DNA from: Candidatus Latescibacterota bacterium
Lineage (GTDB): Bacteria; Latescibacterota; UBA2968; UBA8231
DNA length: 64,000 nt
Reading direction: 5' to 3'
Assembly (NCBI GenBank): GCA_965204725.1
Contig: OZ242005.1
Location: 4,992,001 to 5,056,000 of the forward strand
In this document: positions 3,392-57,667 of the stretch, piece after piece
Layout: the number at the start of each line of letters is the position of its first letter
How positions within the stretch are numbered: position 1 is the first letter of the stretch
The notes under the pieces: model-generated
Seen by the model: only the letters and a program-made list of their open reading frames with translations
What the model was told of the DNA's origin: nothing
Database searches by the model: none
Program-made: the position numbers and the translations under genes

Positions 3392-4480
3392 TTATTGGTC
3401 TCTGATCCAGCTCATGCCCTCGCCGCGCACCAGAAAGGAACGCTCGTCCCAAGGGCCGGGCCGGGTGACGGGCATCCGGCCCTCCTCAACGGCGACGTCG
3501 AGCGGGTTGTCTCGGGTTTGCAGCGGCAGAACCACGCGCTCGTGCAGCCGAGCCGACTCATAGACGCCCATCATGATCTCGGTGGCGGCCTTGCCGTGCT
3601 CGGCCTTGCCATAGTAATCGTCGAAATGGCCCTCGATCCAGCGGCAAATTCCATAAGCTTGATGGACGAAGGCATTGCCGTAGCCGCTGGCCTTATCGTC
3701 GGGCGCGAAGTCCTGCCAGCCGTCGGAACGGGCCGTCATATAGCGCAGGCTGTTGTCGCTGACGACCATCATGCCGTCTTCGCCGTAGATGGTAGCACCC
3801 ACCTGATAAATATCGTTCATCTCGTTTTCGATCACGCCCTTGACCCCTTCGGGATAGCCGATGATTCCCACGCAGCGGTCTTCGACCCGGTGCCCGAAGA
3901 CGAAGTGGTCCGTGTGGCGCTCAACCGCGCCCATGACCCACTCGGCCTGCGGGTCGCCGAGGGCGTAGAGCTGGAAGTCGATACAGTGGGTGCCGGTGTT
4001 CATCATCCCGGCTTTGACCGCCGACCACAGCCGTTGCGGTTTGCCGAGGGCTCCGTCGGCGATCATTCGCCGCGCCTCGCGCCAAGAAGAGTAAAAGCGG
4101 CGCTGGTGGCCGATGGCTAGCTTGACGTGGTTGCGCTCTGCGGCGATGACCATGGCCTCGGCCTCGCCCAAGGAGACGGCCATGGGCTTTTCGCAGAGTA
4201 CGGCTTTGGGCCGGTGGGAGCAGGCGGCGATGGACATTTCCGCATGCTGGGGATCCCAAGAGCAGACGCTGACGATGTCGAGGTTTTCCTCGTCGAGCAT
4301 CTCCCGGTAGTCGAGGTACTGTTTTGCGACGGCGAAATCCGCGGCGTAGCTGGCCAAGGCCTCGGGGTGCGAGTCGGCACAGGCGACGATTTCCGTGTGC
4401 TCGCACTCGGCCCAACCGCGACCGTGCTCGCGGGCAATGCGGCCCGAGGCGATGACGCCAACGCGGTATTTGGCAGGCAC
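3392..4480 (-). CDS. Gfo/Idh/MocA family oxidoreductase
   Basis: VGVIASGRIA, VLCEKPMA, GTHCID. Confidence 0.9.
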   Translation of the reverse strand: MPAKYRVGVIASGRIAREHGRGWAECEHTEIVACADSHPEALASYAADFAVAKQYLDYREMLDEENLDIVSVCSWDPQHAEMSIAACSHRPKAVLCEKPMAVSLGEAEAMVIAAERNHVKLAIGHQRRFYSSWREARRMIADGALGKPQRLWSAVKAGMMNTGTHCIDFQLYALGDPQAEWVMGAVERHTDHFVFGHRVEDRCVGIIGYPEGVKGVIENEMNDIYQVGATIYGEDGMMVVSDNSLRYMTARSDGWQDFAPDDKASGYGNAFVHQAYGICRWIEGHFDDYYGKAEHGKAATEIMMGVYESARLHERVVLPLQTRDNPLDVAVEEGRMPVTRPGPWDERSFLVRGEGMSWIRDQ

Positions 4481-4482
4481 GG

Positions 4483-5370
4483 CTACTTGGCGTCGCCTAG
4501 GTGCATCAGCGGCAGCGGTGCCGGGCTGGTGCCATCGATAAAATAGACCTTGGCGGCCGGGTCTTTAGAGATGGCTTCGAGAGACTTGAGCGCTTGGAGC
4601 TTGACGTAGTTGGGGTTGCGGCCGATGGCCTCGTTGATCTTGGTGATTTCGTAGGCTTGGGCGTCGGCGAGCAGGCGGCGCTTTTCGGCTTCGGCTTCGG
4701 CCGCGTCCTTTTCGGCTTTGGCAAGGGCGACCTTCTGCTTCTGCTCAGTGGTGAAGCGCTCCAGCTCGGCCTTTTGCTTTTCGACTTCCTGCTCGCGCTC
4801 TTTTTTGGCCTCAATGGCCTTGGTGATAAAGGGCGGCAGCGAGATGTCGCGGATCAACACGGCCTCTACATCAACCCCTTTGGGCAGGAGGTAATCCTTC
4901 AGCCCTTCGAGCAGGGCTATCTGCAACGTGGACTGGGTCGCTTCCAAAAAGAAGTCCTCGGCGCGCTTGATGGTCTTGCCTTGCTCGCGGATTAGCGAGC
5001 GCAACTTGGGCACGATGTGGACGGCGCGCACGTTTTCAATGCCGCCCGTCTCTTGTAAGATGCGCGGCGCGTCGGCGGACACGAGGCGGTACTGGACGCT
5101 GACGTCGATCTTGGTCTGCAGCTGGTCTTGGCTGGGGACGTTGGAGGTTTCGGAATGCGTCTTTTGGCGCACGTCGAAGAGGTGCCATTCGTAGAGGGGG
5201 TTGGTCGGGATGTGCAGGCCCTCGGAGAACGACTTGGACTGGACTTCGCCGAAGAGGGTCGCGACGCCCACGTGACCAGCCGGGACGCTTTGGTAGAAGC
5301 GCGGGCTGATGAGGAATAGGACGAAGATGGCGGCGATGATGCCGAGGATAGACTTAGGTAGCTGGATCAT
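4483..5370 (-). CDS. SPFH/prohibitin family membrane protein
   Basis: N-terminal TM, VPAGHVGV..LFG, VLIRDISLP, coiled-coil C-terminus; AAGGAGG RBS before ATG 5370 (alternative start 5397). Confidence 0.85.
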   Translation of the reverse strand: MIQLPKSILGIIAAIFVLFLISPRFYQSVPAGHVGVATLFGEVQSKSFSEGLHIPTNPLYEWHLFDVRQKTHSETSNVPSQDQLQTKIDVSVQYRLVSADAPRILQETGGIENVRAVHIVPKLRSLIREQGKTIKRAEDFFLEATQSTLQIALLEGLKDYLLPKGVDVEAVLIRDISLPPFITKAIEAKKEREQEVEKQKAELERFTTEQKQKVALAKAEKDAAEAEAEKRRLLADAQAYEITKINEAIGRNPNYVKLQALKSLEAISKDPAAKVYFIDGTSPAPLPLMHLGDAK

Positions 5371-5596
5371 GCGAGGCCTCCTTAGGGGCTGGGACATTCT
5401 TCCTGCCTTTGATTGGGATTGGGAAATTGATCACCTAGAAAGTAAATCCTCGGCCTGAAAATGTCCATTAAGGCCCCCAAACCCAAGCGGCGGCCCAGCG
5501 TCTTGAGTGGGGGCCGTGTAGGTTTGTGCCCATGCAGGATTCGATCTACTATACGGCGATACAGTTCGGAATCGAAGGACGAGAAAGGAGCAGCAG

Positions 5597-7060
5597 ATGC
5601 GCGTAGCAATCGGCGGCATTTCCCACGAGAGCAGTACCTTCACCAACGTAGCCACCACGTTGGACAGTTTCCGGGAGCGCAGCTATCTCCACGGAGCGGA
5701 AATTGTCGAGCGTTTTACCGGGGTCAATACGCCCATCGGCGGCTTTATCGAAGGGGCCGAGGCGCACGGCTTTGCAGTCGTGCCGACGATTTTGGCCGAA
5801 GCCCATCCCAGTGCTCCGACGCCTCGTCCTATTTTCAATAGGCTCGTAGGCGAGTTGCTCAACGGCATTGAGGCGGCGGGTGCGATCGACGGGGTTTTAT
5901 TGGAATTGCACGGGGCCATGGTGGCCGAGGGCATTGACGACGCCGACGGGCATATCCTAGCGGCCGTGCGCCGGTTGGTAGGCCCGGATATGCCCATTGT
6001 CGGGCAACTGGACATCCACTCCAATGTCTCTCGCGGCATGATCGAAGCCGCCGATGTCCTGATTGGGCGGGAGACCTATCCAGAGGTCGATATGGCGCCG
6101 AGGGGCCGCGAGTGCGCCGATGTGCTCGTGCGTATAGTGCGGGAGGGCCTGCGGCCGACCATGGCCTTGCACCAACTGCCCCTAGTCTGGGGCATGAACC
6201 AAGTGACGGCCCATCCGCCCATGCGCCAAGCCATCGAATACCTGCACCAGATTGAGGCGCGTCCCGGCGTCGTCTGCGGCTCCATAGCCACTTGCTTCCC
6301 ATTGGCCGACATTCCCGATATGGGTGCCTCCGTGTACGTGACCACCGACAACGACCCCGTCCTAGCCCAATCCTGCGCCGACGAGTTGGCCGCTTGGATC
6401 TGGGAGCGTCGGGCCGATTGGCAGGCGGCCATGCCCGCTACCGCAGAAGCACTGCAAGAGGCCGACAGGACGGGGCGTTACCCGGTGGTTTTGGCCGACC
6501 GCAACGACAATACCGGCGGCGGGTCGCCCGGCGACAGCACGGGACTGTTGCGGGCTTTTTTGGCGGCTGACCTGCAAGACGCCTGCGTCCTGTACATCGT
6601 CGATCCCGAAGCGATCGCCGCTTGCCACGAGGCGGGCGTTGGCGCGGTGCTCAATTTAGAGGTGGGCGGCAAGTCGTCCCCATTGCAAGGCGAGCCGTGC
6701 TCCATGCGGGCCGAGGTGGTGGCCTTGACCGACGGCCCCTTTCGCTACGACGGGCCTATGTACGCCGGCCTAGACGGCAACATGGGCCTTTCGTCCCACA
6801 TCCGCGCGGGCGGGGTACACGTGCTGTTGGTGAACAAGCGCGAGCAACCGTTTTGCACGGCGTTTTCCCGCACCTTGGGTTTGGACCCTAGGCAGATGCG
6901 CTATGTCGGCGTCAAGTCTGCGGCCCACTTCCGCGCTGGTTTTGAGCCGTGGGCTGGCCAGATTCAGGTGGTTTCCGAGCCGTCGGTCCACGCGCCGGCC
7001 GAGGGCAAGCTGGCCTTTAAGCGGCTGGGCCGCAAACTCTACCCCTTTGACGACATTTAG
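5597..7060 (+). CDS. M81 family metallopeptidase (MlrC-like)
   Basis: GGISHESSTF, LHGAM, LDIHSN, DNTGGG, VKSAAHFRAGF. Confidence 0.9.
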   Translation: MRVAIGGISHESSTFTNVATTLDSFRERSYLHGAEIVERFTGVNTPIGGFIEGAEAHGFAVVPTILAEAHPSAPTPRPIFNRLVGELLNGIEAAGAIDGVLLELHGAMVAEGIDDADGHILAAVRRLVGPDMPIVGQLDIHSNVSRGMIEAADVLIGRETYPEVDMAPRGRECADVLVRIVREGLRPTMALHQLPLVWGMNQVTAHPPMRQAIEYLHQIEARPGVVCGSIATCFPLADIPDMGASVYVTTDNDPVLAQSCADELAAWIWERRADWQAAMPATAEALQEADRTGRYPVVLADRNDNTGGGSPGDSTGLLRAFLAADLQDACVLYIVDPEAIAACHEAGVGAVLNLEVGGKSSPLQGEPCSMRAEVVALTDGPFRYDGPMYAGLDGNMGLSSHIRAGGVHVLLVNKREQPFCTAFSRTLGLDPRQMRYVGVKSAAHFRAGFEPWAGQIQVVSEPSVHAPAEGKLAFKRLGRKLYPFDDI

Positions 7061-7165
7061 CGATTTAGGCACTTGGGCTGCGGTGCAGGTGGAGCTCGCC
7101 CAGCACCGGCCCCACTTGGTCGCTTGGATGGAAGTGCCCCGGTGACGTCCAACCCATGTCCTAAG

Positions 7166-7741
7166 CTACGGGTAGGCGACCGGCCAATTCAGTTGCGCTA
7201 GGATCCGCTGCCAGCGTTCCTTGACGTCTTGACCGTCAGTCCAAGGTACGAACCCCAACTTCAGGTAGGATTTGAGTGCTGCCAATCTGAAGTCTTCGGT
7301 GTGGAGATGGATGAGACGGTACCCGGCATCGACAAATCGCCTCACCACCTGCGCCGAGACTGCCATTCCCAATCCGCGACCGGAGTGATCTGGGTCGGCG
7401 ACCAGCCATCCGAGTTCGCCCCAGAATGGATAAGTGCCCTTGTAGTTGTGCAGTGCCATAGCAGAGGCAACGATCACACCGCTCGCCTCGTGCAGCACCA
7501 TGAACCAGCCGTCTGGAAGAATCCGGTTCAGCGAGTACGAGAGCCGCTCGTCGTTCCATCCCTCCCAGCCGACCAGTTCCATCAACTGGTAAAAGCGAGA
7601 CTCATCGCCCGGCCGATAGGTGCGAATCGCGTAGCCGGTTGCCAGAGACCGCTCCGGCAGCGCATGGAGCCGAGACTCCGGCCACACCATGCGTAATTGC
7701 TTCACGTCGTTAGAATGCACTTGGTTGTCCTTTCTTCCCAC
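7166..7741 (-). CDS. GNAT family N-acetyltransferase (start uncertain)
   Basis: Acetyl-CoA motif A DPDHSGRGLG; YLKLGF. Confidence 0.8.
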   Translation of the reverse strand: MGRKDNQVHSNDVKQLRMVWPESRLHALPERSLATGYAIRTYRPGDESRFYQLMELVGWEGWNDERLSYSLNRILPDGWFMVLHEASGVIVASAMALHNYKGTYPFWGELGWLVADPDHSGRGLGMAVSAQVVRRFVDAGYRLIHLHTEDFRLAALKSYLKLGFVPWTDGQDVKERWQRILAQLNWPVAYP

Positions 7742-7837
7742 CGCGATCTGTACGTATAGGCGAAATAGCGGAGATGCTCAAGCCCTTGAGAGTTCCGAGG
7801 TTGACACGATCACCTTACGGCTCGTTTCTACAAGCCC

Positions 7838-9217
7838 ATGCTTCTGACGATTTCGACGACGCATCAACCCGCTACGAGCTTGGGCTATCTCCTGCACAAG
7901 CACCCAAGCCGCGCCCAAGCCTTTGAGTTGCCCTTTGGGACTGCGCACGTCTTCTATCCCGAAGCCTCGCCTGAGCGATGCACGGCCGCGTTGCTCCTCG
8001 ACGTCGATCCAACCGCACTCAAGCGGCGCGCGGCGTCCTCCGACTTTGCGCTGGCGTCTTATGTCAACGACCGCCCCTACGCGGCTTCCTCTTTTATCAG
8101 CGTAGCCATTGCCCGAGTGTTTACCTCGGCCTTGAACGGACAGTGCCGCGAACGGGCCGAGCTCGTAGAAAAGGCCCTGCCGCTGCGAGTGAGCGTTAGT
8201 GCCCTGCCCTGCCGGGGGGGCGAGGGCTTGCTGCGCGGCCTCTTTGAGCCGTTGGGCTATGCGGTGGAGGCTAGGGATTCCTTGCTCGACGAGCATTTTC
8301 CAGAATGGGGCAAAAGCCCCTATTACGAGGTCGAGCTACAGTGCGTCCGGCCATTAAAAGAAGTGCTGGCGCATCTATACGTGCTAATACCGGTGCTCGA
8401 CGACGGGAAGCACTACTACGTGAGCGAGGAGGAGATCGACAAGTTGATGAGGCGAGGCGGGCAGTGGCTGGCTGGCCACCCCCTGCGCGATGTCGTTGTC
8501 GAGCGCTACCTAAAGCACCAGCGAGGGCTCAAGCAGGCCGCGCTGTCGCGGCTTTTGGCCGAAGAAGTCGGGGAGGCCGAAAACCACGCCGGCGAAGAGG
8601 CTCTCGAAGTGGAGTTGAGCCTGAACCAGCAGCGGTTGGCCGCCGTGGTTGAGGAGTTCAAGGCGAGCGGTGCCCGGCGGGTGCTGGACCTCGGCTGTGG
8701 AGAGGGGCGACTGCTCGCGCTGCTGGCGGCGGAAGCGCAGTTTGCCGAAGTGGCGGGCATGGATGTATCGCCGCAAGCCCTAGCGCGTGCTCGTCAGCGG
8801 CTAGCAAGGCTGCCACGCGGCGAACAGGTCGCGGTTTTCCAAGGGTCGCTGACCTATCGCGACGCTCGGTTGAGCGGGTACGACGCCGCAGCACTGGTGG
8901 AGGTCGTCGAGCATTTGGATCCGCCCCAGTTGCGGGCCGGCGAGCGGGCCGTGTTCGAGTTCGCCCGGCCGGATACGGTCGTGATAACCACCCCCAACGC
9001 CGAATACAATGCCCATTGGGCCGCGCTGCCGGCCGGCGCCTTCCGCCATCCCGATCACCGCTTTGAGTGGCGGCGGGCGGAATTGGGGGCGTGGGCAGAG
9101 CAGGTGGGCAAACGCTATGGATATGCCGTGCGCGTCGCGCCCGTTGGCCCAGAGGACCCGGAGCTAGGCGCACCAACGCAGATGGCGATTTTCTCTGCGG
9201 AGGCCCGAAGTGGCTGA
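7838..9217 (+). CDS. hen1: 3'-terminal RNA ribose 2'-O-methyltransferase Hen1
   Basis: N-terminus MLLTISTTHQPATSLGYLLHKHP; SAM motif VLDLGCGEG; EVVEH; HPDHRFEW; overlaps pnkp. Confidence 0.95.
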   Translation: MLLTISTTHQPATSLGYLLHKHPSRAQAFELPFGTAHVFYPEASPERCTAALLLDVDPTALKRRAASSDFALASYVNDRPYAASSFISVAIARVFTSALNGQCRERAELVEKALPLRVSVSALPCRGGEGLLRGLFEPLGYAVEARDSLLDEHFPEWGKSPYYEVELQCVRPLKEVLAHLYVLIPVLDDGKHYYVSEEEIDKLMRRGGQWLAGHPLRDVVVERYLKHQRGLKQAALSRLLAEEVGEAENHAGEEALEVELSLNQQRLAAVVEEFKASGARRVLDLGCGEGRLLALLAAEAQFAEVAGMDVSPQALARARQRLARLPRGEQVAVFQGSLTYRDARLSGYDAAALVEVVEHLDPPQLRAGERAVFEFARPDTVVITTPNAEYNAHWAALPAGAFRHPDHRFEWRRAELGAWAEQVGKRYGYAVRVAPVGPEDPELGAPTQMAIFSAEARSG

Positions 9218-48559: not shown

Positions 48560-48730
48560 TTATATTTGCGAATCTGTAAGCTGAGGAGTTTGGGAGAAGT
48601 CAACAACCTTAAACCCATGCTCCTGCTCTTTCTGTCGCAACGCTGTTGCCAAGCGATCAAGATCATATTCAAATTCCCGAGCCAGTTCGTCTTTTGCTTT
48701 CCATACGTCTTCGATTATTTCGTTTTTCAT
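48560..48730 (-). CDS. Small hypothetical protein
   Basis: MKNEIIEDVWKAKDELAREFEYDL; resembles a short family often found next to PIN genes; AT-richer. Confidence 0.55.
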   Translation of the reverse strand: MKNEIIEDVWKAKDELAREFEYDLDRLATALRQKEQEHGFKVVDFSQTPQLTDSQI

Positions 48731-48821
48731 CTCAGCCACTTTTCTAAAAAAATAAGGCGATGAGCTAGCCAAGCCCATCGCCTGTACATCTAAACCGAAT
48801 GCCGAGTCGAGCCAGCAGGGC

Positions 48822-49733
48822 CTAGTGGTTGAACTCGGTTTTGATGCGGCCCCAAGTGCTCGATTCAACGGACGTGGTGGGGGCGGCGCCCCAGTCGATG
48901 TCGTCGTCGAGCTCGTTCATCACCATGTCGTTGTCGGCGCGGCAGCAGCCATTGGGCGAAATCGACCAGAAGCCCTGATAGTCTTCGAGGGCGGCCCCGC
49001 CGGGAATGTCGAAGTCGCCGAAGGTCCAGCTAATAGCGATGATCTGGCCTTCTTCGAGGTCGGTCTCTTCGGCCGCCTCGCGGTCGCCATCGTCGGGAAT
49101 GAAGTCGAAGGGACGAATCCACGCCTCGTAGAAATACGTGCTCTCGCCGAACTCTTCTCCCTCAAACGTGTACGCAAACTTCCAAGCGTCGTTGTTGTCG
49201 GGGTCGAGGACCCAGTCAAACGGGGGATTGTACCCGCCCCACGCGCCAGCCGTCGGCGGCATGGACCAGTTGTACCCTATCTTGAGGATGCCGCCTTCTT
49301 GCCCAGGGGCGTGGCCACCGCCGCCTTCTACCTCGGGGTGGGTCGGCGACACATAGACTTCCCAAGCGTCGTCGGACCACCAAGCATTTGGCTCTTCGGC
49401 GTCGCGGGTGTGGACGTTGTCGAAGACCTCGGCCATGAAATAGAGCAGGTTGGTGTTGTCGTTCCAGCCGACAATCTGCCGCACGCTCAGGTCGCTTACG
49501 TCGATCTCGCCGCGCGCCTTGCTGTACACCGAATCCGAATACCTGTCGTTGCCGACTTCGTACGGGATTTGGGGCACGGCGGCCCAATCGGCGTGATTGC
49601 CGTCGATGACCGGGATGTTTTCGTCTGGGAACTGTACGGCGAACAGGAGCTCGCCGGGCGGAAAGTGAGCCAGAGCCGGTAGCGAAACCACCGCGGCGAG
49701 TAGGGCACTTACTAGCGTTTTGCGCATCGCCAT
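48822..49733 (-). CDS. Secreted acidic CBM9-like protein with C-terminal VESSTWGRIK motif
   Basis: Signal peptide; PVIDGNHADW, WNDNTNLLYF, DAWEVYV; AAGGAG RBS. Confidence 0.72.
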   Translation of the reverse strand: MAMRKTLVSALLAAVVSLPALAHFPPGELLFAVQFPDENIPVIDGNHADWAAVPQIPYEVGNDRYSDSVYSKARGEIDVSDLSVRQIVGWNDNTNLLYFMAEVFDNVHTRDAEEPNAWWSDDAWEVYVSPTHPEVEGGGGHAPGQEGGILKIGYNWSMPPTAGAWGGYNPPFDWVLDPDNNDAWKFAYTFEGEEFGESTYFYEAWIRPFDFIPDDGDREAAEETDLEEGQIIAISWTFGDFDIPGGAALEDYQGFWSISPNGCCRADNDMVMNELDDDIDWGAAPTTSVESSTWGRIKTEFNH

Positions 49734-49878: not shown

Positions 49879-51600
49879 TTACCTACTCTCGGCCAAGGCC
49901 CGCCGAATGCGCGCGGCCTCGCGGTGCGCCGGGTCGAGGCGCAGCAAGGTCGTCCAAGCCGCGGCCATTTCCGCCCAGCGTTGCTGGCCGCGGTACAGCT
50001 CGCCCAAGCGGTAGTGCGCCTTAGCGGCCTGAGCGTCTAGTGCCACGAGCGCGGTGTATTGCCGGATGGCGTCCGCTGGGCGGCCGACGCGCTCGTAGGC
50101 GCGGCCCAAATTGTAGTAGGCCCTCAAGTGGTGCGGGGCCAGCCGCAACGCCGTGCGGTAGTGTTCGATGGCCGCTTCGTAGCGACCGGCTTTCTGGTAA
50201 GTCAGGCCGAGATTGAAATGCGCTTCAACATGCGTGGGATGCAGGGCCAGCGCGGTCTTAAAGGACGCGATGGCCGCTTCGTAGCGCCGCGCCGCCCGGT
50301 GTAGTACTCCGAGGTTGAAGTGCGCTCGCAGTCGGGTCGGCTGAATGGCCACCGCTCGCTGGTAGTGATGGAGTGCGCGGGCGTATTGCCCCGATTGATA
50401 GTACGTAAACGCGAGGTTGTCGTGGGCGCGGGCGTTGTCTGGATAGTGCGCCAAGACAGCGGCAAACAAGCGAGCGTCGCTGTGCCAGTCGCGGTTGCGG
50501 ACGATGGTGCGCACCCCGCCCAGCAGGACCGCACCTAGTGCCACTGCCCAAATTAGACGCCGCGGTCCCGGGCTTTTCCGCAGCACCCACCCCCAAGTCA
50601 GGGCCACCGGAATCATGGCGAAGTGCAAGTAACGCTCGGCCATGCCGCTGGGCGCGAGGAAAAGCACATTGGCTACCGGCAAGAGGCACGCGCCAAAGAA
50701 CGCGCTGGCAAAGACCAGAAAGCGCGAGCGCACCACCCAAGGCAGCGCGATCAACGCGACGCACAAGCCTGAGCCAACGATAAACCACAGGTCGAAAGGC
50801 GACGTCACCGGCGGGATTGACGCATGCGAATAATCCGCCGACAGGTGTAGCGGTGCGGCGATCAGCAGCAAATAGCGCGGCAGAATGGCCACCGCCGTGC
50901 CGAGCCGCTGCCACGGGCCGAGGTCGGCCAAAAAATTGGTGGAAACCGGCCCGGCCGGGGCGTCGGCCAACGCCAGCCAACGCAAGGCCAAGACGCCGAG
51001 CAGGACCGCCCCGTAGCCCCAATGTCGCTTGCACCAAGCCGCTACGCCCTCCCGCGAGTCCGCCAACAACAGCGCGACCGGCAACACCATCGCCGTCTCT
51101 TTCGACAGGCAGGCCCCCGCGTACAGCAAATAGGCGAGGACGCGCCGCTGCCGATGCGCGATAAACGCACTCAGGGACAACGAGCTGGCGAGCAAGTCAC
51201 CCCGCGCCGACACCCACGCTACCACTTCGGTCTGGAGGGGATGACTCGCGTACAGCAAGGCGGCCCACAGCGCGGCGCGCCCTTCGCCGAGCAGGTCGCG
51301 GGCCAATGCGTACAGGAGCAGACTATTGACCGCATGCAATAGGACGTTGGTTAGGTGATAGCCCCAAGGCGCTTCCCCAAAGAGTTGGAAATCGACCCCC
51401 AGCGAGAGCAAGGTCAGCGGCCGGTACCACGCCAGCCCCATCCAACTCGTGCCAAAAAGCTCGCCTAGGGCCAGCGAGCGCACCGCATCGCTGGCGAGGT
51501 ACGCCGAGTCGTCAAAAACAAAGCCGTTGCCCAGCGTATTGGCGTAACACGCTAGGGCCAGTGCCGCTATGTAGCTGAGGTGCGAGGCTGGGAGCCGCAT
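49879..51600 (-). CDS. TMTC-like GT-C/TPR protein (protein O-mannosyltransferase-like)
   Basis: GFVFDD, YRPL, YHLTNVLLH, HPLQTEVVAWVSAR, SKE, AERYLHF, RNRDW; TPRs. Confidence 0.88.
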   Translation of the reverse strand: MRLPASHLSYIAALALACYANTLGNGFVFDDSAYLASDAVRSLALGELFGTSWMGLAWYRPLTLLSLGVDFQLFGEAPWGYHLTNVLLHAVNSLLLYALARDLLGEGRAALWAALLYASHPLQTEVVAWVSARGDLLASSLSLSAFIAHRQRRVLAYLLYAGACLSKETAMVLPVALLLADSREGVAAWCKRHWGYGAVLLGVLALRWLALADAPAGPVSTNFLADLGPWQRLGTAVAILPRYLLLIAAPLHLSADYSHASIPPVTSPFDLWFIVGSGLCVALIALPWVVRSRFLVFASAFFGACLLPVANVLFLAPSGMAERYLHFAMIPVALTWGWVLRKSPGPRRLIWAVALGAVLLGGVRTIVRNRDWHSDARLFAAVLAHYPDNARAHDNLAFTYYQSGQYARALHHYQRAVAIQPTRLRAHFNLGVLHRAARRYEAAIASFKTALALHPTHVEAHFNLGLTYQKAGRYEAAIEHYRTALRLAPHHLRAYYNLGRAYERVGRPADAIRQYTALVALDAQAAKAHYRLGELYRGQQRWAEMAAAWTTLLRLDPAHREAARIRRALAESR

Positions 51601-51654
51601 GACGACATTTCTTGAGAAAACAATAAGTTATGGGCTTGACTGAACGTATTATCG

Positions 51655-51903
51655 GGCACGATCTTTCAGAAAACCCGTGTTCCCTTACAAAAATGGTTTC
51701 TCGCCATCGGCTTGCAAGTCAATGCCAAAAAGAGCTTATCGATCCACCAGCTTGCCCGCGATCTGCAAGGTACATGCAGCAACGCTTCGAGCGGCTATGG
51801 CGACCGACGAAGAGGGTTTGATTTATGGTATTGTCGAGGTTGGATGAAGGGGATACATTGACAGACGCATAAGCCGATAATTTATCATTCCGGGTATATG
51901 CGC
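51655..51903 (+). pseudogene. Degraded IS1595-family transposase fragment
   Basis: Across frameshifts reads GTIFQKTRVPLQKWFLAIGL..NAKKSLSIHQLARDL..YMQQR..RAAMATDEEGLIYGIVE. Confidence 0.7.
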
Positions 51904-51926
51904 TCAATAGAACAAAACGGAGACAG

Positions 51927-54152
51927 GTGACACAAATGGACAGCATCCAAACGGCACTCAAAGACAGCAACTATCGTCTCGACCTGTTCAAGGACGATGA
52001 AATTAAAAATCTGCGTGCTAGGGTTTTCCGCAAAACCGGCCGAGAGCATCTGAAGTGCATCGTCCGGGATAAGGATATTCAGCTAAAGCCCGAAGAAATC
52101 GTCCGCCAACTCTATGCGGCTCGGCTTATCGATCAGTATGGCTATTCCAAAAACCGCTTGACCTTTGAACACCCGGTCAGCTTTGGAAGAGAAAAGAAAA
52201 AGGCCGACATTGTCATTTTTGACAAAGACCGTTTTGATACGGCCTATATCATCGTGGAGGTCAAAAAGCCCAAGCTCAAGGATGGAAAAGACCAGCTTCG
52301 ATCCTATTGCAACGCCACCGGCGCGCCGATTGGCGTGTGGACCAATGGCGAGCAAATTTCCCATTACCACCGCAAAGCCCCCAACTATTTTGAGGACATC
52401 ACCGATATTCCAAACAGTGCTCAAAGCCTTAAAGACATACTCCGCGAACGCTTTACCTTGAAAGACCTGATCATCAAAGACAAGGTCGCCAATGAGCGCA
52501 AATCCCTGAAGGACATCATTTTGGAAATGGAAGACGAAGTGCTGGCCAATGCCGGGGTGGACGTATTCGAGGAGGTTTTTAAGCTCATATTCACCAAGCT
52601 ATACGACGAATTTCTCAGCCAAAGAAACAAGGAAGCCATCAACTATGTCGTGCGAGAAATGACAGGAACGGTTGTCAGTGATCGAAGTTCGTCGGATTAT
52701 TTTTACGGACAGAATTATGAAGGGCTCAAAAAAGCGGTCAGCGCGGTTGACGACGAGGGCTTTCGAGCTATGGAATTCAGAAATACCGGGCAGACCGATG
52801 CGGGACTCAAGAAAAAAATTCAAACCCTGTTCGATCAGGCAAAGGACAAATGGTCGGGGGTGTTTCCCGAAGGCGCGACTTTTGAACTCTCCGACAGCCA
52901 CTTGTCCGTTTGCGTGTCTAGCTTGCAAGATGTGAAATTGTTCAACTCCAATTTGCTGGTGGTGGATGAAGCCTTTGAGTATCTGGTCAGCAAATCCGCC
53001 AAAGGCGAAAAGGGGCAATACTTCACGCCGCGCCATGTCATTGATATGTGTGTGCAGATGCTGAACCCCCAACCCGGCGAATACATGATCGACACTGCTT
53101 CCGGCAGTTGTGGTTTTCCAGTGCATACCATTTTTAAGCTCACGGGGCATTTGTTCAGCAACGTGGAGATCAAGCCGGAGGAAAAAGAGAATGTCCTAAA
53201 AGTGTTCGGCATTGACTTTGACGAAAAGACCGTCCGCGTCGCCCGCACGTTGAACTTGATTGCCGGCGATGGCGAGACCAATGTGCTGCATTTGAACACA
53301 CTGGATTTTGAACGCTGGAGCGACCGGGTAGAGAAAGACAGGCAGTGGATCAGAACGTATGGCGATGGCTTTGAACGGCTGGAAAAACTGCGAGCCGAAA
53401 AAGGTCAAAATAAGCGGTTTAACTTCGATATTCTGATGGCCAATCCGCCCTTTGCCGGCGACATCAAGGAAAGCCGCCTGCTACATCAATACGACCTCGG
53501 GTTTAAGGCCAACGGCAAGGCGCAAAGCAAAGTCGGGCGCGACATTCTGTTTATTGAGCGCAATCTGGACTTTCTAAAGCCCGGCGGGCGTATGGCGATT
53601 GTGCTACCGCAGGGCCGATTTAACAACACAACCGACAAGTATATCAGGGAATTTATCACCGAGCGCGGGCGCATCCTCGCCGTAGTTGGGCTACACGGCA
53701 ATACGTTCAAACCGCATACAGGAACCAAAACTAGCGTGTTGTTTGTGCAGAAATGGGACGATGAACTCTGCTCCAAAGTAGATGACTACCCCATCTTTTT
53801 TGCCGTGAGCGAAAAGGGGGGCAAGGATAACTCCGGCGATTACGTCTATGTCAAAAGCGAGAACGGGCAGGACAAGCTAGACAGAAACGGCCATTTGATC
53901 GTCGACCACGATTTGCACAACCACGATGGCGAACTGCCCGACGGCATTGCCGAAGCCTTCATTGAGTGGGCGAAGGGCGAAGGGTTGAGTTTTTGGGAAA
54001 ATGAAGAAGATGGGTTGAGAACCGACCGACGCCAAGCATGGCGGGACTTTATTAGCAACAATCGCCAAAGGCGAATATACGTCGATAGCGATATAGATAT
54101 TTCGCGTCTAGGTGATAAAATAAACGACATGGAAGTGGAGCTTGAAAAGTGA
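51927..54152 (+). CDS. N-6 DNA methylase with N-terminal HsdR_N-type nuclease domain (type I/IIB-like RM large subunit)
   Basis: KPEEIVRQ, ADIVIF...IIVEVKK; GQYFTPR, DTASGSCGF, ANPPF. Confidence 0.9.
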   Translation: MTQMDSIQTALKDSNYRLDLFKDDEIKNLRARVFRKTGREHLKCIVRDKDIQLKPEEIVRQLYAARLIDQYGYSKNRLTFEHPVSFGREKKKADIVIFDKDRFDTAYIIVEVKKPKLKDGKDQLRSYCNATGAPIGVWTNGEQISHYHRKAPNYFEDITDIPNSAQSLKDILRERFTLKDLIIKDKVANERKSLKDIILEMEDEVLANAGVDVFEEVFKLIFTKLYDEFLSQRNKEAINYVVREMTGTVVSDRSSSDYFYGQNYEGLKKAVSAVDDEGFRAMEFRNTGQTDAGLKKKIQTLFDQAKDKWSGVFPEGATFELSDSHLSVCVSSLQDVKLFNSNLLVVDEAFEYLVSKSAKGEKGQYFTPRHVIDMCVQMLNPQPGEYMIDTASGSCGFPVHTIFKLTGHLFSNVEIKPEEKENVLKVFGIDFDEKTVRVARTLNLIAGDGETNVLHLNTLDFERWSDRVEKDRQWIRTYGDGFERLEKLRAEKGQNKRFNFDILMANPPFAGDIKESRLLHQYDLGFKANGKAQSKVGRDILFIERNLDFLKPGGRMAIVLPQGRFNNTTDKYIREFITERGRILAVVGLHGNTFKPHTGTKTSVLFVQKWDDELCSKVDDYPIFFAVSEKGGKDNSGDYVYVKSENGQDKLDRNGHLIVDHDLHNHDGELPDGIAEAFIEWAKGEGLSFWENEEDGLRTDRRQAWRDFISNNRQRRIYVDSDIDISRLGDKINDMEVELEK

Positions 54153-54553
54153 TCTATATTGACACAGATGTTTTGGTACATGCTTATGTCGTTCAGGATA
54201 GAGAAAAGAATAGGAGGGCCAATGAAGTTATCGAGCAAGTGAATGAAGGTAATAGCGCAGCCATATCAACGCTTAGTGTTCAAGAAATGCTGTTTGTTCT
54301 GGAAAAATTACGTATTGACAGCCAAGCTATTGACACGGCTTACAATGAAGTTATGCAACTGCAACCTCTTGCTTATGACATAGAAATTTTACGGCGAGCG
54401 GTTGATATAGCCAAGCAGGTTGGTTTTAGAAACATCAATGACTGTATTCATACAGCGATTGCCGAATCACACTGCACGGAGTTGATTACCTACAATAAGG
54501 GCGATTTCAGAAAAATAAGGGAGTTTGCAAAGGTTAAGGTGACGATACTGTGA
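54149..54553 (+). CDS. PIN-domain (VapC-like) ribonuclease
   Basis: IYIDTDVL, SVQE, NDCIHTAIA, LITYNKGDF; GTGA overlap with the methylase stop. Confidence 0.88.
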   Translation: MIYIDTDVLVHAYVVQDREKNRRANEVIEQVNEGNSAAISTLSVQEMLFVLEKLRIDSQAIDTAYNEVMQLQPLAYDIEILRRAVDIAKQVGFRNINDCIHTAIAESHCTELITYNKGDFRKIREFAKVKVTIL

Positions 54554-54597
54554 CGTAGCAACCATTAAAACGCTGTCGTTTGAAAGATGAGGGAAGG

Positions 54598-55989
54598 ATG
54601 AGATATAAAATCAGATATTTATCAAGCGTGTCTCTGCATCCAGACCACCGTTGGGATGGCGAATACCTGTGTTTTGAGCCATACAAAAACGAGAACCTTG
54701 ACTATGTACCAATAGGTGACGTGCTTTCTTCTTCTCAATATGGCGTTTCCATAGAGATGAATGAAGAGAGAATCGGAACAAAAATTTACAGGATGAATGA
54801 GATTAGCAATATGTTGTGTGACCGCACCATCTTAAAGTACGCAAAATTAAGTGCTGATGAGGTTGCATTATACAAACTCAAAGACAGAGATGTTCTGTTT
54901 AACCGCACAAACTCGCAAGCGTTCGTAGGCAGAACGGGTATATTTAGAAAATTCTCAGATGAAGCCGTTGTTTTTGCGTCTTACCTTGTACGCATAAATC
55001 CAAATCCTAAAATCGTTACTCCTGAATACTTAACAGCATTTTTGAATACCAAATACGGTGTTCAGGATGTCAAAAGACGGGCAAGAATTTCAATCAACCA
55101 ATCAAATGTCAATGCGGAGGAATTAAAGAGGATCAAGATACCACTGTTATGTGATGAACTACAAACAAAGATAACATTATTGTTTGATAAAGCCTTTGAT
55201 TTCATTCAAGCATCAGAGGCCATATATCGTCAAGCCGAAACCCTCCTTATCTCTGAACTCGGCCTTGCCAACTGGCAGCCCAAACACCAACTCGCCTTTG
55301 TCAAAAACTACTCCGATACTCAGCGATTTGAGCGCATTGACGCCGAGTATTTTCAGCCGCAATATGAGGAGATAGTCAATGTCATCAAAAGCTATTCGGG
55401 TGGATGGGATACACTGGATAATTTGGCTCACTTAAAAGACAAAAATTTCAGACCAAAAAATAAGACAGAATACAGATACATTGAACTTGCCAATATCGCA
55501 GACAACGGAGAAATAACCGACTGTACAACAACACAAGGTCAAGATTTGCCAAGCAGAGCAAAACGCAAAGTGTCAATGGGAGATGTGATTGTTTCATCTA
55601 TAGAGGGTTCACTCGATAGCATCGCCTTGATAGATGCGAAATATGATGAGGCCCTTTGTTCTACGGGTTTCCATCTGCTTAACTCAAAGATGTTTAATTC
55701 CGAAACGCTACTTGTACTGATGAAAAGCATAATTGGACAGTTGCAACTCAAGAAGAGATGTAGTGGAACCATTTTGACTGCTATCAAAAAAGACGAACTT
55801 GCTCAGATTATTTTACCAATAATTGAGAAAGAAAAACAGGCGCGAATCCAGCAAAAAGTGACCGAGTCCTTTGACTTGCGAGAGCAGTCTAAACACCTAC
55901 TAGAATGCGCCAAACTAGCGGTAGAAATGGCTATTGAACAGGACGAACAGACGGCCATTGAGTGGATGGAAGGGGCACTTGCCTGTTAG
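54598..55989 (+). CDS. RM specificity (S) subunit with two TRDs
   Basis: RWDGEY and RIDAEYFQP repeats; DVLFNRTNS, FASYLVRI, STGF; AT-rich. Confidence 0.88.
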   Translation: MRYKIRYLSSVSLHPDHRWDGEYLCFEPYKNENLDYVPIGDVLSSSQYGVSIEMNEERIGTKIYRMNEISNMLCDRTILKYAKLSADEVALYKLKDRDVLFNRTNSQAFVGRTGIFRKFSDEAVVFASYLVRINPNPKIVTPEYLTAFLNTKYGVQDVKRRARISINQSNVNAEELKRIKIPLLCDELQTKITLLFDKAFDFIQASEAIYRQAETLLISELGLANWQPKHQLAFVKNYSDTQRFERIDAEYFQPQYEEIVNVIKSYSGGWDTLDNLAHLKDKNFRPKNKTEYRYIELANIADNGEITDCTTTQGQDLPSRAKRKVSMGDVIVSSIEGSLDSIALIDAKYDEALCSTGFHLLNSKMFNSETLLVLMKSIIGQLQLKKRCSGTILTAIKKDELAQIILPIIEKEKQARIQQKVTESFDLREQSKHLLECAKLAVEMAIEQDEQTAIEWMEGALAC

Positions 55990-55996
55990 GTATAAT

Positions 55997-57667
55997 ATGG
56001 ACGCGCTAAGAGACGTCAGACTCGCACAAACCCGTTGGGCGATCCTTGTGGCGGCACTGGTCTTATCGCTGGCGTGTAGTCGGCCAGACGCGCCGGCGGT
56101 AGCACGGGTCGGCGACGTGCCCATCACGGGCGCGGAGTTGCGCCGGTTTGCCGCAAACGTGTTGCCCGGGCTGCGCCCACCCGATCCAACAGGGCCAGCG
56201 GCGCGTGAGTCCTACTTGCAGACCTTGATCGACCGCCAACTCATGCTGCGCCAAGCCCGCGAAACGGGCCTAGACCGCGAGCCGGCCGTGCGGGTTGCGC
56301 GGCTGCTCCAGCGGCGCACCTATCTGGCGAACTTGTACCGGAAGCGCGACCTGCATCCCCAAGCGCGCATTACGGACGCGGATGTCGCCCGCTTTTTTGC
56401 CGAGCAGGGCCTCGGGCGCGAGCGCCTCATGACGGCCATTTTGGTCCAGACCGAGGCCGAAGCCCAAGCGATCGCACGCCAACTCGCAACCGGGGCTTCC
56501 TTTGCCGAACTCTCGGCCCAACACACGCTCGACCCCCGCGCGGCTGCCCAGCGCGGGCGAATCGGCTTTGTCAATCGCGCCATGGCCAGCCGCCTCGGGG
56601 TGCCAGAGGTCGTATTCGATCACCAGCCGACCGGCGTCGTATCCGAGCCGTTGCCCTTGGGCCGGCGGTTTCACTTGGTGCGCTTTGTCGAGGAGCGCCA
56701 AGTAGAAGTCGATAGCCAGCGGGAGTTGCTCGCCCGCGAGCTGGCCAAAGCCAAAAGGCGGGAGGTTGAGCGGCAGCAGGTCGAGCTCCTCGCCTATAAA
56801 CTCGGCTGGCGTTTGACCGCGCCGGGCCTAGCCGCCCTGCCAGCAAAAGCGAACGCGCCCTTGTTTACCTACGATGGCGGCGAGGTCTCCACCGAAGAAT
56901 ACCTAGAAATCCTGCACAAGCATCGGGTGACGCGCCCAGCGGCGTTGCAAGACAGCGCGACCATTGCGGCCTTTGCGCGCCGCGCCATCTTGCCGGAGCT
57001 CGTGTTGGCCGCTGCAGCCGAAAAGGCCGGCTACCACCAAAAGGCAGAGGCCGCCGCGCACTTGGCCAAAGCCGACGAAGAATTGCTGCTCAAAGCCGCG
57101 TACCAACGCCACGTAAGCGACTCGGTCGCCGTCGCCGCGGCCGAGGTCGAGGGCTATATCGCCGCGCATCCCGAGCGATTCACCACCCCGGAGTCTATCT
57201 GCTTTGACGAGCTGATCGCGCCCAGCCGGCAAGAGGCCCAGCAACTCAAAGACGCTTTGACCGGCCAAGAGGACTTGGCCGCCTTGGCCAAGGCGCGCGG
57301 TTTCCCGTTGCGACCGCGGCGCGCCGATGGCCTCGTCTGCATGCACCGCTACAACAGCGTCCCGTATCCCCAGCTCTGGCGTGCCCTGCAATCGGCCGAG
57401 AGCGGCGTCCTAAACGGCCCGGTGCAAACCCGCGAGGGATTTGCCTTGTTCGTGGTGGTCCGCACCGAGCCGGCCCAGCCCGAGCCGGCCCCGCAGGCGC
57501 GACAACGGGCGCGAGCGGCCCTCGTGCAGCAGGCCGAACAAACGCGCTTTGACCATTGGATTGCGTCGTTGCGAGAAAAGTACCGCGACGAAATTGACAT
57601 CTCGGCCGAGCAACTCGCCGCCGCGCTGCCCGATTCGCTGCTCGCCAGCCTCGGACCGCGCGAGTGA
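55997..57667 (+). CDS. Peptidylprolyl isomerase (SurA/PpiC-type) lipoprotein
   Basis: Lipobox LAC; ILVQTEAEA..GASFAELSAQHTLD..GRIG; second parvulin-like domain. Confidence 0.82.
   Translation: MDALRDVRLAQTRWAILVAALVLSLACSRPDAPAVARVGDVPITGAELRRFAANVLPGLRPPDPTGPAARESYLQTLIDRQLMLRQARETGLDREPAVRVARLLQRRTYLANLYRKRDLHPQARITDADVARFFAEQGLGRERLMTAILVQTEAEAQAIARQLATGASFAELSAQHTLDPRAAAQRGRIGFVNRAMASRLGVPEVVFDHQPTGVVSEPLPLGRRFHLVRFVEERQVEVDSQRELLARELAKAKRREVERQQVELLAYKLGWRLTAPGLAALPAKANAPLFTYDGGEVSTEEYLEILHKHRVTRPAALQDSATIAAFARRAILPELVLAAAAEKAGYHQKAEAAAHLAKADEELLLKAAYQRHVSDSVAVAAAEVEGYIAAHPERFTTPESICFDELIAPSRQEAQQLKDALTGQEDLAALAKARGFPLRPRRADGLVCMHRYNSVPYPQLWRALQSAESGVLNGPVQTREGFALFVVVRTEPAQPEPAPQARQRARAALVQQAEQTRFDHWIASLREKYRDEIDISAEQLAAALPDSLLASLGPRE

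Follow-up and report, generated by a model that had tools for sequence, protein, structure and literature searches.

How is a VapC-like ribonuclease (RNase) kept silent when its gene lies within a restriction-modification (RM) operon that holds no antitoxin gene for it? This question is raised by a locus of a Candidatus Latescibacterota bacterium (contig OZ242005.1, positions 4,992,001 to 5,056,000 of the forward strand). That stretch of 64,000 nucleotides is the window of this study, and plain coordinates below refer to it. In the window, a nuclease-methyltransferase fusion subunit (hereafter the methylase), a PIN-domain protein and a specificity (S) subunit follow each other in an island of low guanine-plus-cytosine (GC) content. 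The initial annotation of this DNA read the end of the methylase as an antitoxin-like tail and proposed that the RM subunit itself sequesters the PIN nuclease; an accidental fusion after a vapBC insertion was its alternative. Our results indicate that the tail is probably the captured toxin-binding C-terminus of a VapB-like antitoxin, so that the RM subunit would be the antitoxin that keeps the RNase silent. The antitoxin-like nature of the tail is supported by four independent lines of evidence, namely its recurrence beside PIN genes, its profile homology to a free-standing protein, its move to the S subunit in one locus, and a model of the tail-PIN complex. Gene order, fusion, recurrence, homology and the predicted interface were computed, and from these we infer toxicity, neutralisation and a trigger. 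The features on which the argument draws are the following:

51600..56000, no strand assigned: low-GC island of about 4.4 kilobases (kb), delimited in the composition profile (40-53% GC, against 63-68% GC in the chromosome)
51927..54152, + strand: methylase, 741 amino acids (aa), of a Type IIB-like/Type I M family, with the tail at its C-terminus
52089..52412 (residues 55-162), + strand: N-terminal nuclease-like domain of PD-(D/E)xK type (PF13588 HSDR_N_2, E-value 4.6e-27)
52962..53780 (residues 346-618), + strand: N6-adenine methyltransferase domain (Pfam PF02384 N6_Mtase, E 5.2e-33)
53997..54149, + strand: putative antitoxin-derived tail of 51 residues (691-741), beyond the end of the family profile
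54137..54140, + strand: GGAG, a Shine-Dalgarno-like element in the final tail codons, 8 bases 5' of the PIN start
54149..54553, + strand: VapC-like PIN-domain RNase, 134 aa (Pfam PIN, E 7.2e-16), with a 4-base overlap with the methylase stop
54580..55989, + strand: S subunit, 469 aa, with two target-recognition regions (Pfam Methylase_S in 2 stretches; PADLOC Specificity_I)

According to the listing of open reading frames (ORFs) and the Pfam matches, the island contains only these three co-oriented genes. The methylase and PIN genes meet in the sequence GTGA, which reads as GTG at 54149-51 and as TGA at 54150-52. No separate antitoxin ORF lies between methylase and PIN in the window. Thus the ORF order, the GTGA overlap, the missing antitoxin ORF and the 51 tail residues quoted in the initial annotation all hold in the ORF listing and in the sequence as read. 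Its starting point for the tail does not: position 53995 falls two bases early, inside a tryptophan codon, and the true start is 53997.

The tail begins where the family ends. The PADLOC profile that matches the methylase (MTase_I PDLC03034, E 4.8e-288) has 672 positions and stops at residue 691. The usual end of the family is ...GLSFW, and the window methylase runs 51 residues further; two plasmid homologs align to it only up to residues 689-691. Among the best 120 homologs of the methylase C-terminal part, 81 have a homologous tail of about 50 residues, 33 end at most 7 residues from ...LSFW, five have cut or frameshifted tails, and one (P0027, 1225 aa) joins methylase, tail and S in a single ORF. 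The profile end and the 33 short homologs bear out the normal methylase end given in the initial annotation. Database proteins with cut or frameshifted tails are P0073, P0074, P0078, P0081, P0094 and P0112. Two other database proteins look, like P0027, as if they arose by rearrangement: P0126 joins the first ~20 methylase residues in frame to the tail, and in P0129 the tail is joined to the C-terminal end of S.

The tail is conserved in sequence. Its consensus is ..RRKAW.NF..NNR.RR.YVDPDIDISRL.DEMNDME.., with the core motif ..AW..F..NNR.RR.YVD.DIDIS.L.DE.N., and its alignment holds no conserved methionine column that could be used as a separate start. The tail appears to be under purifying selection, with a median pairwise ratio of nonsynonymous to synonymous substitution rates (dN/dS) of 0.22, compared with 0.13 for PIN and 0.06 for the preceding 200 methylase codons; these are rough figures, with dS saturated (>1). 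No family was matched in Pfam (E up to 10) by the tail alone or by the last 117 residues, nor in NCBIfam and PADLOC (E up to 0.1) by the tail alone. An exhaustive phmmer search of the tail against 1.84 billion representatives returned no more than 13 proteins, all of them short (57-87 aa, E <= 1e-3); the majority are visible remnants of methylase C-termini and not an independent family. The long-form methylases do not figure among these matches, presumably since other members represent the 50% clusters.

Outside the window, the tail recurs together with PIN. A scan of one genome per species with the tail alignment gave 20 loci, which come from metagenome-assembled genomes of Poribacteria, Latescibacterota, Caldilineaceae and Dehalococcoidia; further loci were obtained from a metagenome scan with PIN and from genomes of the window's own phylum. 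Sixteen loci have a full-length tail (the window, L001, L003, L004, L007, L008, L009, L011, L012, L014, L016, L018, L019, L020, L021 and L045), and they span at least four phyla. An intact PIN, 59-83% identical to that of the window, lies directly 3' of the tail in 11 of the 16, and two more have a broken PIN, which is split in two in L014 and cut after 16 codons in L003. This is the recurrence of the tail/PIN order in other genomes that the initial annotation had proposed to look for. Moreover, all 13 junctions with a PIN start display an NTGA overlap (GTGA in 8, ATGA in 2, TTGA in 3), and GGAG occurs within 30 bases 5' of the PIN start in nine of them. The genome of L003 holds a further copy 7.5 kb away: L003:7150-7197 and L002:7150-7197 mark a duplicated methylase C-terminus with the tail and the first 16 PIN codons, cut at the identical point, with unrelated ORFs between the two copies.

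The PIN family is compact (238 clusters at E <= 1e-3, at least 64% identical among the matches listed), and the intact members whose context could be read have the tail upstream in 11 of 11 cases; no intact PIN of the family without a tail was seen among the loci read. Intact PINs always come with a tail while tails without PIN exist, an imbalance that one would expect between a toxin and its antitoxin. By the length of the longest contig, 22 of 81 long-form methylase clusters, against 1 of 38 others (P0073, which has a cut tail), coincide with one of the 120 listed PIN clusters; this is a crude lower bound, and we take only its direction into account. Conversely, no PIN of the tail-linked family occurs in any of the seven tail-less methylase loci with downstream flank (L049, L050 and L055-L059; 0/7). 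These are two plasmids and five viral contigs, with methylases 54-68% identical to that of the window, and in six of the seven S either lies directly 3' of the methylase or forms one protein with it, whereas S went undetected in L055. They were drawn from plasmids and viral contigs, given that 401 sampled Chloroflexota genomes gave only 2 methylase hits. Left out of the tail-less counts were L054, which is 51% identical with an alignment that reaches residue 706; L047, whose methylase has two stops; L060, with a flank of 276 bases; and L061, which is cut. When a phage collection was compared with the methylase, the matches were an unannotated record of 6.5 kb and some Streptococcus phage methylases that were partial; these were not used. 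One of the plasmids, pAQ6 of Picosynechococcus sp. PCC 7002 (L049), encodes at 3983-8122 a tail-less 1179-aa 'N-6 DNA methylase' that is a methylase-S fusion; 3' of it lie a small hypothetical gene and then a gene for a RelE/ParE toxin. Here a toxin-antitoxin (TA) module adjoins this RM family unfused.

The most telling arrangement was found in Dehalococcoidia. In L020 (L020:5597-7542), a tail-less methylase ending in ...GLSFWGGEE is followed by an S subunit with the tail, and then by PIN. This S subunit has 514 aa and a C-terminal tail ending ...RRASWQNFVDDNRERRLCVDDSIDISSLCDEMN..., and PIN overlaps the tail by TTGA. The tail is on S, yet it still precedes PIN; therefore, it travels with PIN and not with the methylase.

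The initial annotation had also proposed to search for the tail as a standalone gene upstream of PIN genes. The metagenome scan recovered distant PIN relatives (33-44% identity) at 16 loci, L022-L037, on Sphingobacteriales-type contigs. Upstream of each lies a gene for a protein of ~80 aa, whose end lies 2-5 bases 5' of the PIN start or shares one base with it; this gene is intact in 15 of the 16 loci and cut short in L030. The C-terminus of the protein (...DNRSNAPVISPDIDIRxLIDE...) resembles the tail core (...NNRKRRIYVDPDIDISRLxDE...). An hhalign comparison of tails and free-standing proteins gave a probability of 90.5% and an E-value of 1.4e-6, aligning tail positions 18-46 to residues 53-81 of 82, that is, C-terminus to C-terminus. 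When deeper alignments were compared with the whole 755-column long-form methylase profile, the sole match was the tail (E 1.3e-4, 39 columns), and the control, the free-standing query against tail-less methylases, gave E 0.31.

The free-standing family comprises 212 clusters, is called 'hypothetical' in nearly all sources that name it, and matches no family in Pfam. Its protein differs from the tail by an extra N-terminal domain of ~40 residues, only the helical C-terminal part being matched in the tail. The structure model of the protein displays a small N-terminal domain (predicted local distance difference test, pLDDT, 87-92 over residues 1-30) and then two helices, with a predicted template modelling score (pTM) of 0.37. 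These uncharacterised pairs thus resemble the window in having a PIN, and an upstream C-terminus that aligns with the tail; unlike in the window, the upstream protein stands alone with its N-terminal domain, and no RM genes adjoin the pairs in the flanks examined. In pairs L030, L034, L035, L036 and L037 the PIN gene is frameshifted or split, and the upstream gene is intact in four of them and cut in L030.

The PIN protein itself is VapC-like. Positions D5, E46, D98 and D119 are invariant and N116 is at least 90% conserved among 46 sequences; these are presumably the catalytic positions, as in VapC. The NCBIfam VapC models match PIN below their cut-off (24.7 versus 73.6 bits), PADLOC has no match to the protein, the PIN profile had 0 matches among PDB sequences, and a scan of viral contigs with PIN found no relatives. 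The PIN model has a pLDDT of 90.7, and its closest folds are the VapC toxins of solved VapBC/FitAB complexes, 6a7v (template modelling score, TM, 0.81), 2h1c and 3zvk; another close fold is the PIN protein PcrIIC1 (8wmm).

We modelled the complex of PIN and tail, as the initial annotation had suggested. The interface score ipSAE was 0.74/0.79/0.78 (median 0.78), and the best of 3 controls reached 0.00; the mark for this score is reached by 58 of 80 solved complexes and by 2 of 110 mismatched pairs. Between runs, the agreement in contacts is 89% or more, and the partner pLDDT is at least 63. The predicted interface involves PIN residues 6-7, 46, 97, 114-116 and 119, among others, and tail residues 7-39. 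In the model, W15, F18/I19 and N22 of the tail face PIN residues 12-13, 25, 28-29 and 71, while residues 31-39 of the tail lie at the acidic pocket. With these contacts the tail would be laid over the conserved acidic pocket, as the C-termini of VapB are; that is, the tail is predicted to cover the active site of PIN.

Based on these findings, we propose the following scenario. A two-gene antitoxin/PIN module would have landed between the methylase and S genes. The antitoxin would have lost its N-terminal domain, and the remainder would have become the in-frame end of the methylase. PIN would be translationally coupled to the tail through the 4-base stop/start overlap and the Shine-Dalgarno-like run, so that each RM subunit would be made together with one PIN molecule. 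The tail on the RM subunit would then cover the PIN active site and silence the RNase, with the RM complex acting as antitoxin. Whatever takes away, shortens or breaks down the methylase-tail, or draws the tail off, would free the RNase. Such release might come from loss of the island, from a premature stop or frameshift in the 2.2-kb RM frame, from proteolysis, or possibly from an anti-restriction protein.

This scheme shares much with VapBC modules such as M. tuberculosis VapBC11, FitAB and Rickettsia VapBC2. There is a PIN toxin of ~134 aa with a conserved acidic pocket, and a neutralising element directly upstream with overlapping stop and start, the tail codons ending 1 base into the PIN start codon. 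The C-terminal peptide of the antitoxin is likewise predicted to lie over the active site in our model. Unlike VapB, the tail has no gene of its own and no N-terminal DNA-binding or dimerising domain; it is the last 51 residues of a 741-aa enzyme (of S in L020). Consequently, it cannot autoregulate as VapB does and is hardly a short-lived protein. A further difference is that, by sequence, no solved chain and no named antitoxin family is matched by PIN or by the tail.

As for the role of this arrangement, most likely it interlocks the toxin with the integrity or presence of the RM system, either as addiction or as protection against decay of the RM genes; a second, possible role is that of a back-up killer. 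The integrity lock is favoured since the antidote is the last piece of a 2.2-kb frame while PIN has a ribosome-binding run of its own. Decay products of the system fit this role as well: there are in-frame deletions that keep the tail (P0126), tail-only ORFs, and loci in which PIN is lost or broken and the tail persists.

Several observations weigh against the view that the tail is an antitoxin for PIN. Three of the 16 full-length tail loci (L011, L016 and L045) lack PIN; a PIN of the tail-linked family is absent throughout the genomes of L011 and L016; and the fused protein P0027 keeps a well-preserved tail without PIN. The initial annotation held that a tail common among homologs without a PIN neighbour would speak against it; such tails do exist, in these three loci and one fused protein, and they are a minority only. 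The loci are also related and few, and the tail-less loci used for comparison are not close sisters of the window methylase. The homology between the tail and the free-standing protein rests on a short segment of 29-39 aligned columns, and that protein is itself only a presumed antitoxin. Finally, the score of the predicted complex is the model's own confidence, with VapBC well represented among solved structures and with our own alignments supplied.

The tail-only ORFs of Poribacteria weigh on the same side. At one syntenic site (L004:1290-1457, L005:6947-7144, L006:6917-7156, L010:6908-7138 and L013:6935-7156) there is an ORF of 55-79 aa that consists of the final methylase-core residues and the tail. 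It lies directly 3' of a conserved gene of 289 aa, and a 571-aa recN-like gene follows within about 2 kb 3' of it in L005, L006, L010 and L013. A similar tail-only ORF has another setting in L011 (L011:6959-7153), just upstream of that locus's own full RM system. These six ORFs have a median dN/dS of 0.23 at dS 0.46 and look constrained, and the genomes of L005 and L011 contain no PIN of the tail-linked family. Constraint in a PIN-less genome means that the tail may have a use beyond PIN. The Poribacteria ORF may be an orphan antidote or a relic.

Among the other explanations, the one that fares best is the guard reading of the initial annotation, which accepts the tethered antitoxin and adds a specific trigger and role. 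It holds that a phage anti-restriction factor, such as a DNA mimic or an Stp-like peptide, or damage to the RM system displaces the tail, so that the RNase is freed and the infected cell aborts. The model for such a guard is the gene for PrrC, which is embedded in the EcoprrI RM operon according to a preprint (bioRxiv 10.1101/2024.01.29.577857). The likeness is one of logic and not of protein families: both systems place a toxic RNase gene in an RM operon, neither has a separate antitoxin gene, and an RM protein is the proposed inhibitor. PrrC differs in being an ABC-ATPase-type anticodon nuclease, with the ATPase domain at its N-terminus and the nuclease domain at its C-terminus, where here we find a single PIN domain of 134 aa. 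EcoprrI has a separate HsdR, and the trigger of PrrC is the T4 peptide Stp. EcoprrI is not known to carry an antitoxin-derived peptide.

The anatomy that a guard would display is identical to the one described above, with the toxin gene inside the RM operon, and the attachment of the tail-PIN pair to S in L020 as well as to M elsewhere suggests that selection has favoured a tie to the RM complex and not to one protein. However, a guard needs a trigger that sequence cannot show, and the free-standing relatives presumably work as plain two-gene modules. PIN is also lost or broken in five of the 16 loci while the RM genes stay, from which it follows that PIN is dispensable to RM. A guard of this kind agrees with the findings and would be a reasonable extension of them; we consider it possible but rather unlikely.

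An extension of the same idea is that tail and PIN form a portable 'guard cassette', which docks in frame on M or S and spreads between phyla, with the RM complex as both sensor and antitoxin and the orphan tails of Poribacteria as anti-addiction antidotes. This broader proposal is doubtful. If it were true, phage anti-restriction attack or truncation of the RM frame would unleash the RNase, and the system would be an independently evolved counterpart of PrrC/EcoprrI.

It could be argued instead that the tail is an element intrinsic to RM, serving subunit assembly, regulation or as a linker, and that PIN is an unrelated embedded passenger regulated elsewhere. The tails without PIN in L011, L016, L045 and P0027 would agree with this, as would the constrained look of the relic tail ORFs in PIN-less genomes. 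The gap between M and S also appears to be a general landing place, in view of the DUF4145 protein and the IS200-like transposase (the latter assigned by likeness) found there in other loci. Yet 33 of 120 close homologs, together with the plasmid and viral-contig relatives, have no tail and still have S directly downstream. Furthermore, an alignment with the partner of free-standing PINs is obtained for the tail and not for tail-less methylases, the tail of L020 left M and stayed beside PIN, and in the complex model the active site of PIN is where the tail lies. An RM-intrinsic tail is thus improbable.

The insertions just mentioned deserve description. In L021 (L021:4572-5417) the gene between PIN and S encodes a DUF4145 protein (E 5.4e-12). 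In L007 (L007:7659-8984) a relative of IS200-like Y1 transposases and a 255-aa ORF occupy the same place; the transposase was assigned by its likeness to L006:7289-7861, which matches PF01797. A 167-aa ORF lies between PIN and S in L008 (L008:7632-8135), and a 496-aa ORF on the opposite strand in L009 (L009:7647-9137(-)).

Alternatively, PIN might not be a toxin under antitoxin control at all, and might instead work alongside M and S as the cleavage or effector module that the RM system lacks. There is no HsdR-type motor gene in the island, and in Matelska et al. 2017 (PMC5499597) PIN nucleases are raised as possible restriction modules in HsdM/HsdS operons that lack R. On the other hand, the methylase already has a nuclease-like domain at its N-terminus, the tail-less relatives consist of M and S only, the nearest folds of PIN are VapC RNase toxins, and the relatives of PIN form two-gene pairs with no RM genes in the flanks examined. 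Such an effector is very improbable. That the fusion is an assembly or sequencing artefact, or a one-off read-through in which a lost stop joined a small antitoxin gene to the methylase in one genome, is refuted by its recurrence: the same in-frame fusion occurs in 81 of 120 protein clusters, independent assemblies add 15 other loci with a full-length tail, and the tail appears to be under purifying selection and has no conserved methionine column as a separate start.

The same recurrence across independent assemblies excludes a stop or frameshift between methylase and tail, which the initial annotation had named as a way for its reading to fail. It also settles the fate of the accidental fusion. 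An accident in one genome can be rejected because the fusion is old, occurs in at least four phyla and has a dN/dS of about 0.22; the origin from a TA module whose antitoxin is now without its N-terminal domain stands. Recurrence, the hhalign homology, the L020 arrangement and the complex model together favour an antitoxin-like tail fused to the methyltransferase, as was first proposed from the window alone.

The class of the RM system in which the tail resides was also considered. HSDR_N_2 and N6_Mtase share one ORF, and the 741-aa protein is on that account a nuclease-methylase fusion. Residues E81, D94, E111 and K113 are invariant in 58 long-form methylase homologs and are presumably the catalytic residues of the nuclease-like domain. 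A nuclease-like N-terminal domain and a gamma-type N6-adenine methylase in a single chain, with a separate S subunit of two target-recognition domains, are traits of Type IIB enzymes such as BsaXI and BcgI, a class that cuts DNA to either side of a bipartite site and needs no ATP-dependent motor. In comparison with plain Type IIB systems, tail and PIN are added, and RM.BsaXI (8w0p, E 1.9e-21), the closest solved sequence relative of the methylase, matches over residues 488-613 only. PADLOC files the methylase family as a Type I methyltransferase. Classical Type I systems (HsdM/HsdS/HsdR) have a separate HsdR motor-nuclease subunit, which is not in the island: no HsdR motor gene was found in its 4.4 kb, the rest of the genome not having been searched for HsdR. 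The system would accordingly be described either as an RM fusion plus S of the BcgI/BsaXI kind or as a pair of M and S resembling Type I, in which a nuclease domain is fused. A methylation-associated defence system (MADS) was considered and rejected: MAD2 scored 286.6 bits against a cut-off of 720 and MAD5 103.2 against 400 (NCBIfam), and the other MAD genes are not in the island.

The surroundings of the three genes add some detail. S is listed from TTG 54580; ATG 54598 is preceded by the run GAGGGAAGG, and relatives align from residue 7, which makes this ATG the likelier and probably the true start of S. The DNA 5' of the methylase is conserved between loci only for ~44 bases at the start codon. 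An antisense ORF across the junction (53846-54238) was discarded, its frame not being kept open in other loci. The promoter and terminator scan of the island gave counts equal to the shuffle expectation and thus no evidence either way. Region 51630-51870 had no match in Pfam, and a remembered likeness to an IS1595-type transposase fragment was dropped.

The methylase was found in one of 30 other genomes of the same genus and in seven of 168 genomes of the phylum, and the genome to which the window belongs contains a single tail and a single PIN of the tail-linked family. The same genome encodes a second, distant PIN outside the window (G000:C1:4499258-4499638), with E 1.6e-9 to the PIN family profile. 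Within the window, a small ORF at 48560-48868 on the minus strand has ~60 final residues (MKNEIIEDVWKAKDELAREF...) that are charged and helical-looking in an antitoxin-like manner; no Pfam family matched it at E <= 0.01.

How far the finding bears on known biology can be judged from earlier work. PIN-like nucleases transcriptionally coupled to type I RM subunits, some with 'antitoxin elements missing', are described in PMC5499597. Three operons of PIN, HsdM and HsdS without an R candidate are among them, and Matelska et al. 2017 propose 'a different mechanism of regulation', which they do not identify. A fused tail would supply the antitoxin that PIN genes in HsdM/HsdS operons seem to lack. 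Full-text literature searches turned up no account of an RM subunit that carries a fused antitoxin peptide, which is no proof of absence.

In this system an RM enzyme and a TA toxin would be coupled physically in a clear-cut way, and it would provide a simple model for interlocked defence systems. It would offer a concrete, testable answer to the puzzle posed in 2017 by PIN genes 'without an antitoxin'. For annotation, it would mean that about two thirds of the closest methylase homologs end in a functional module that has gone unannotated. Natural variants for comparison are provided by the recurrence of the fusion, on M or on S. If a trigger exists, the PrrC principle would have a second, unrelated case; if there is none, the locus would show a TA module that polices the reading frame of a costly defence gene.

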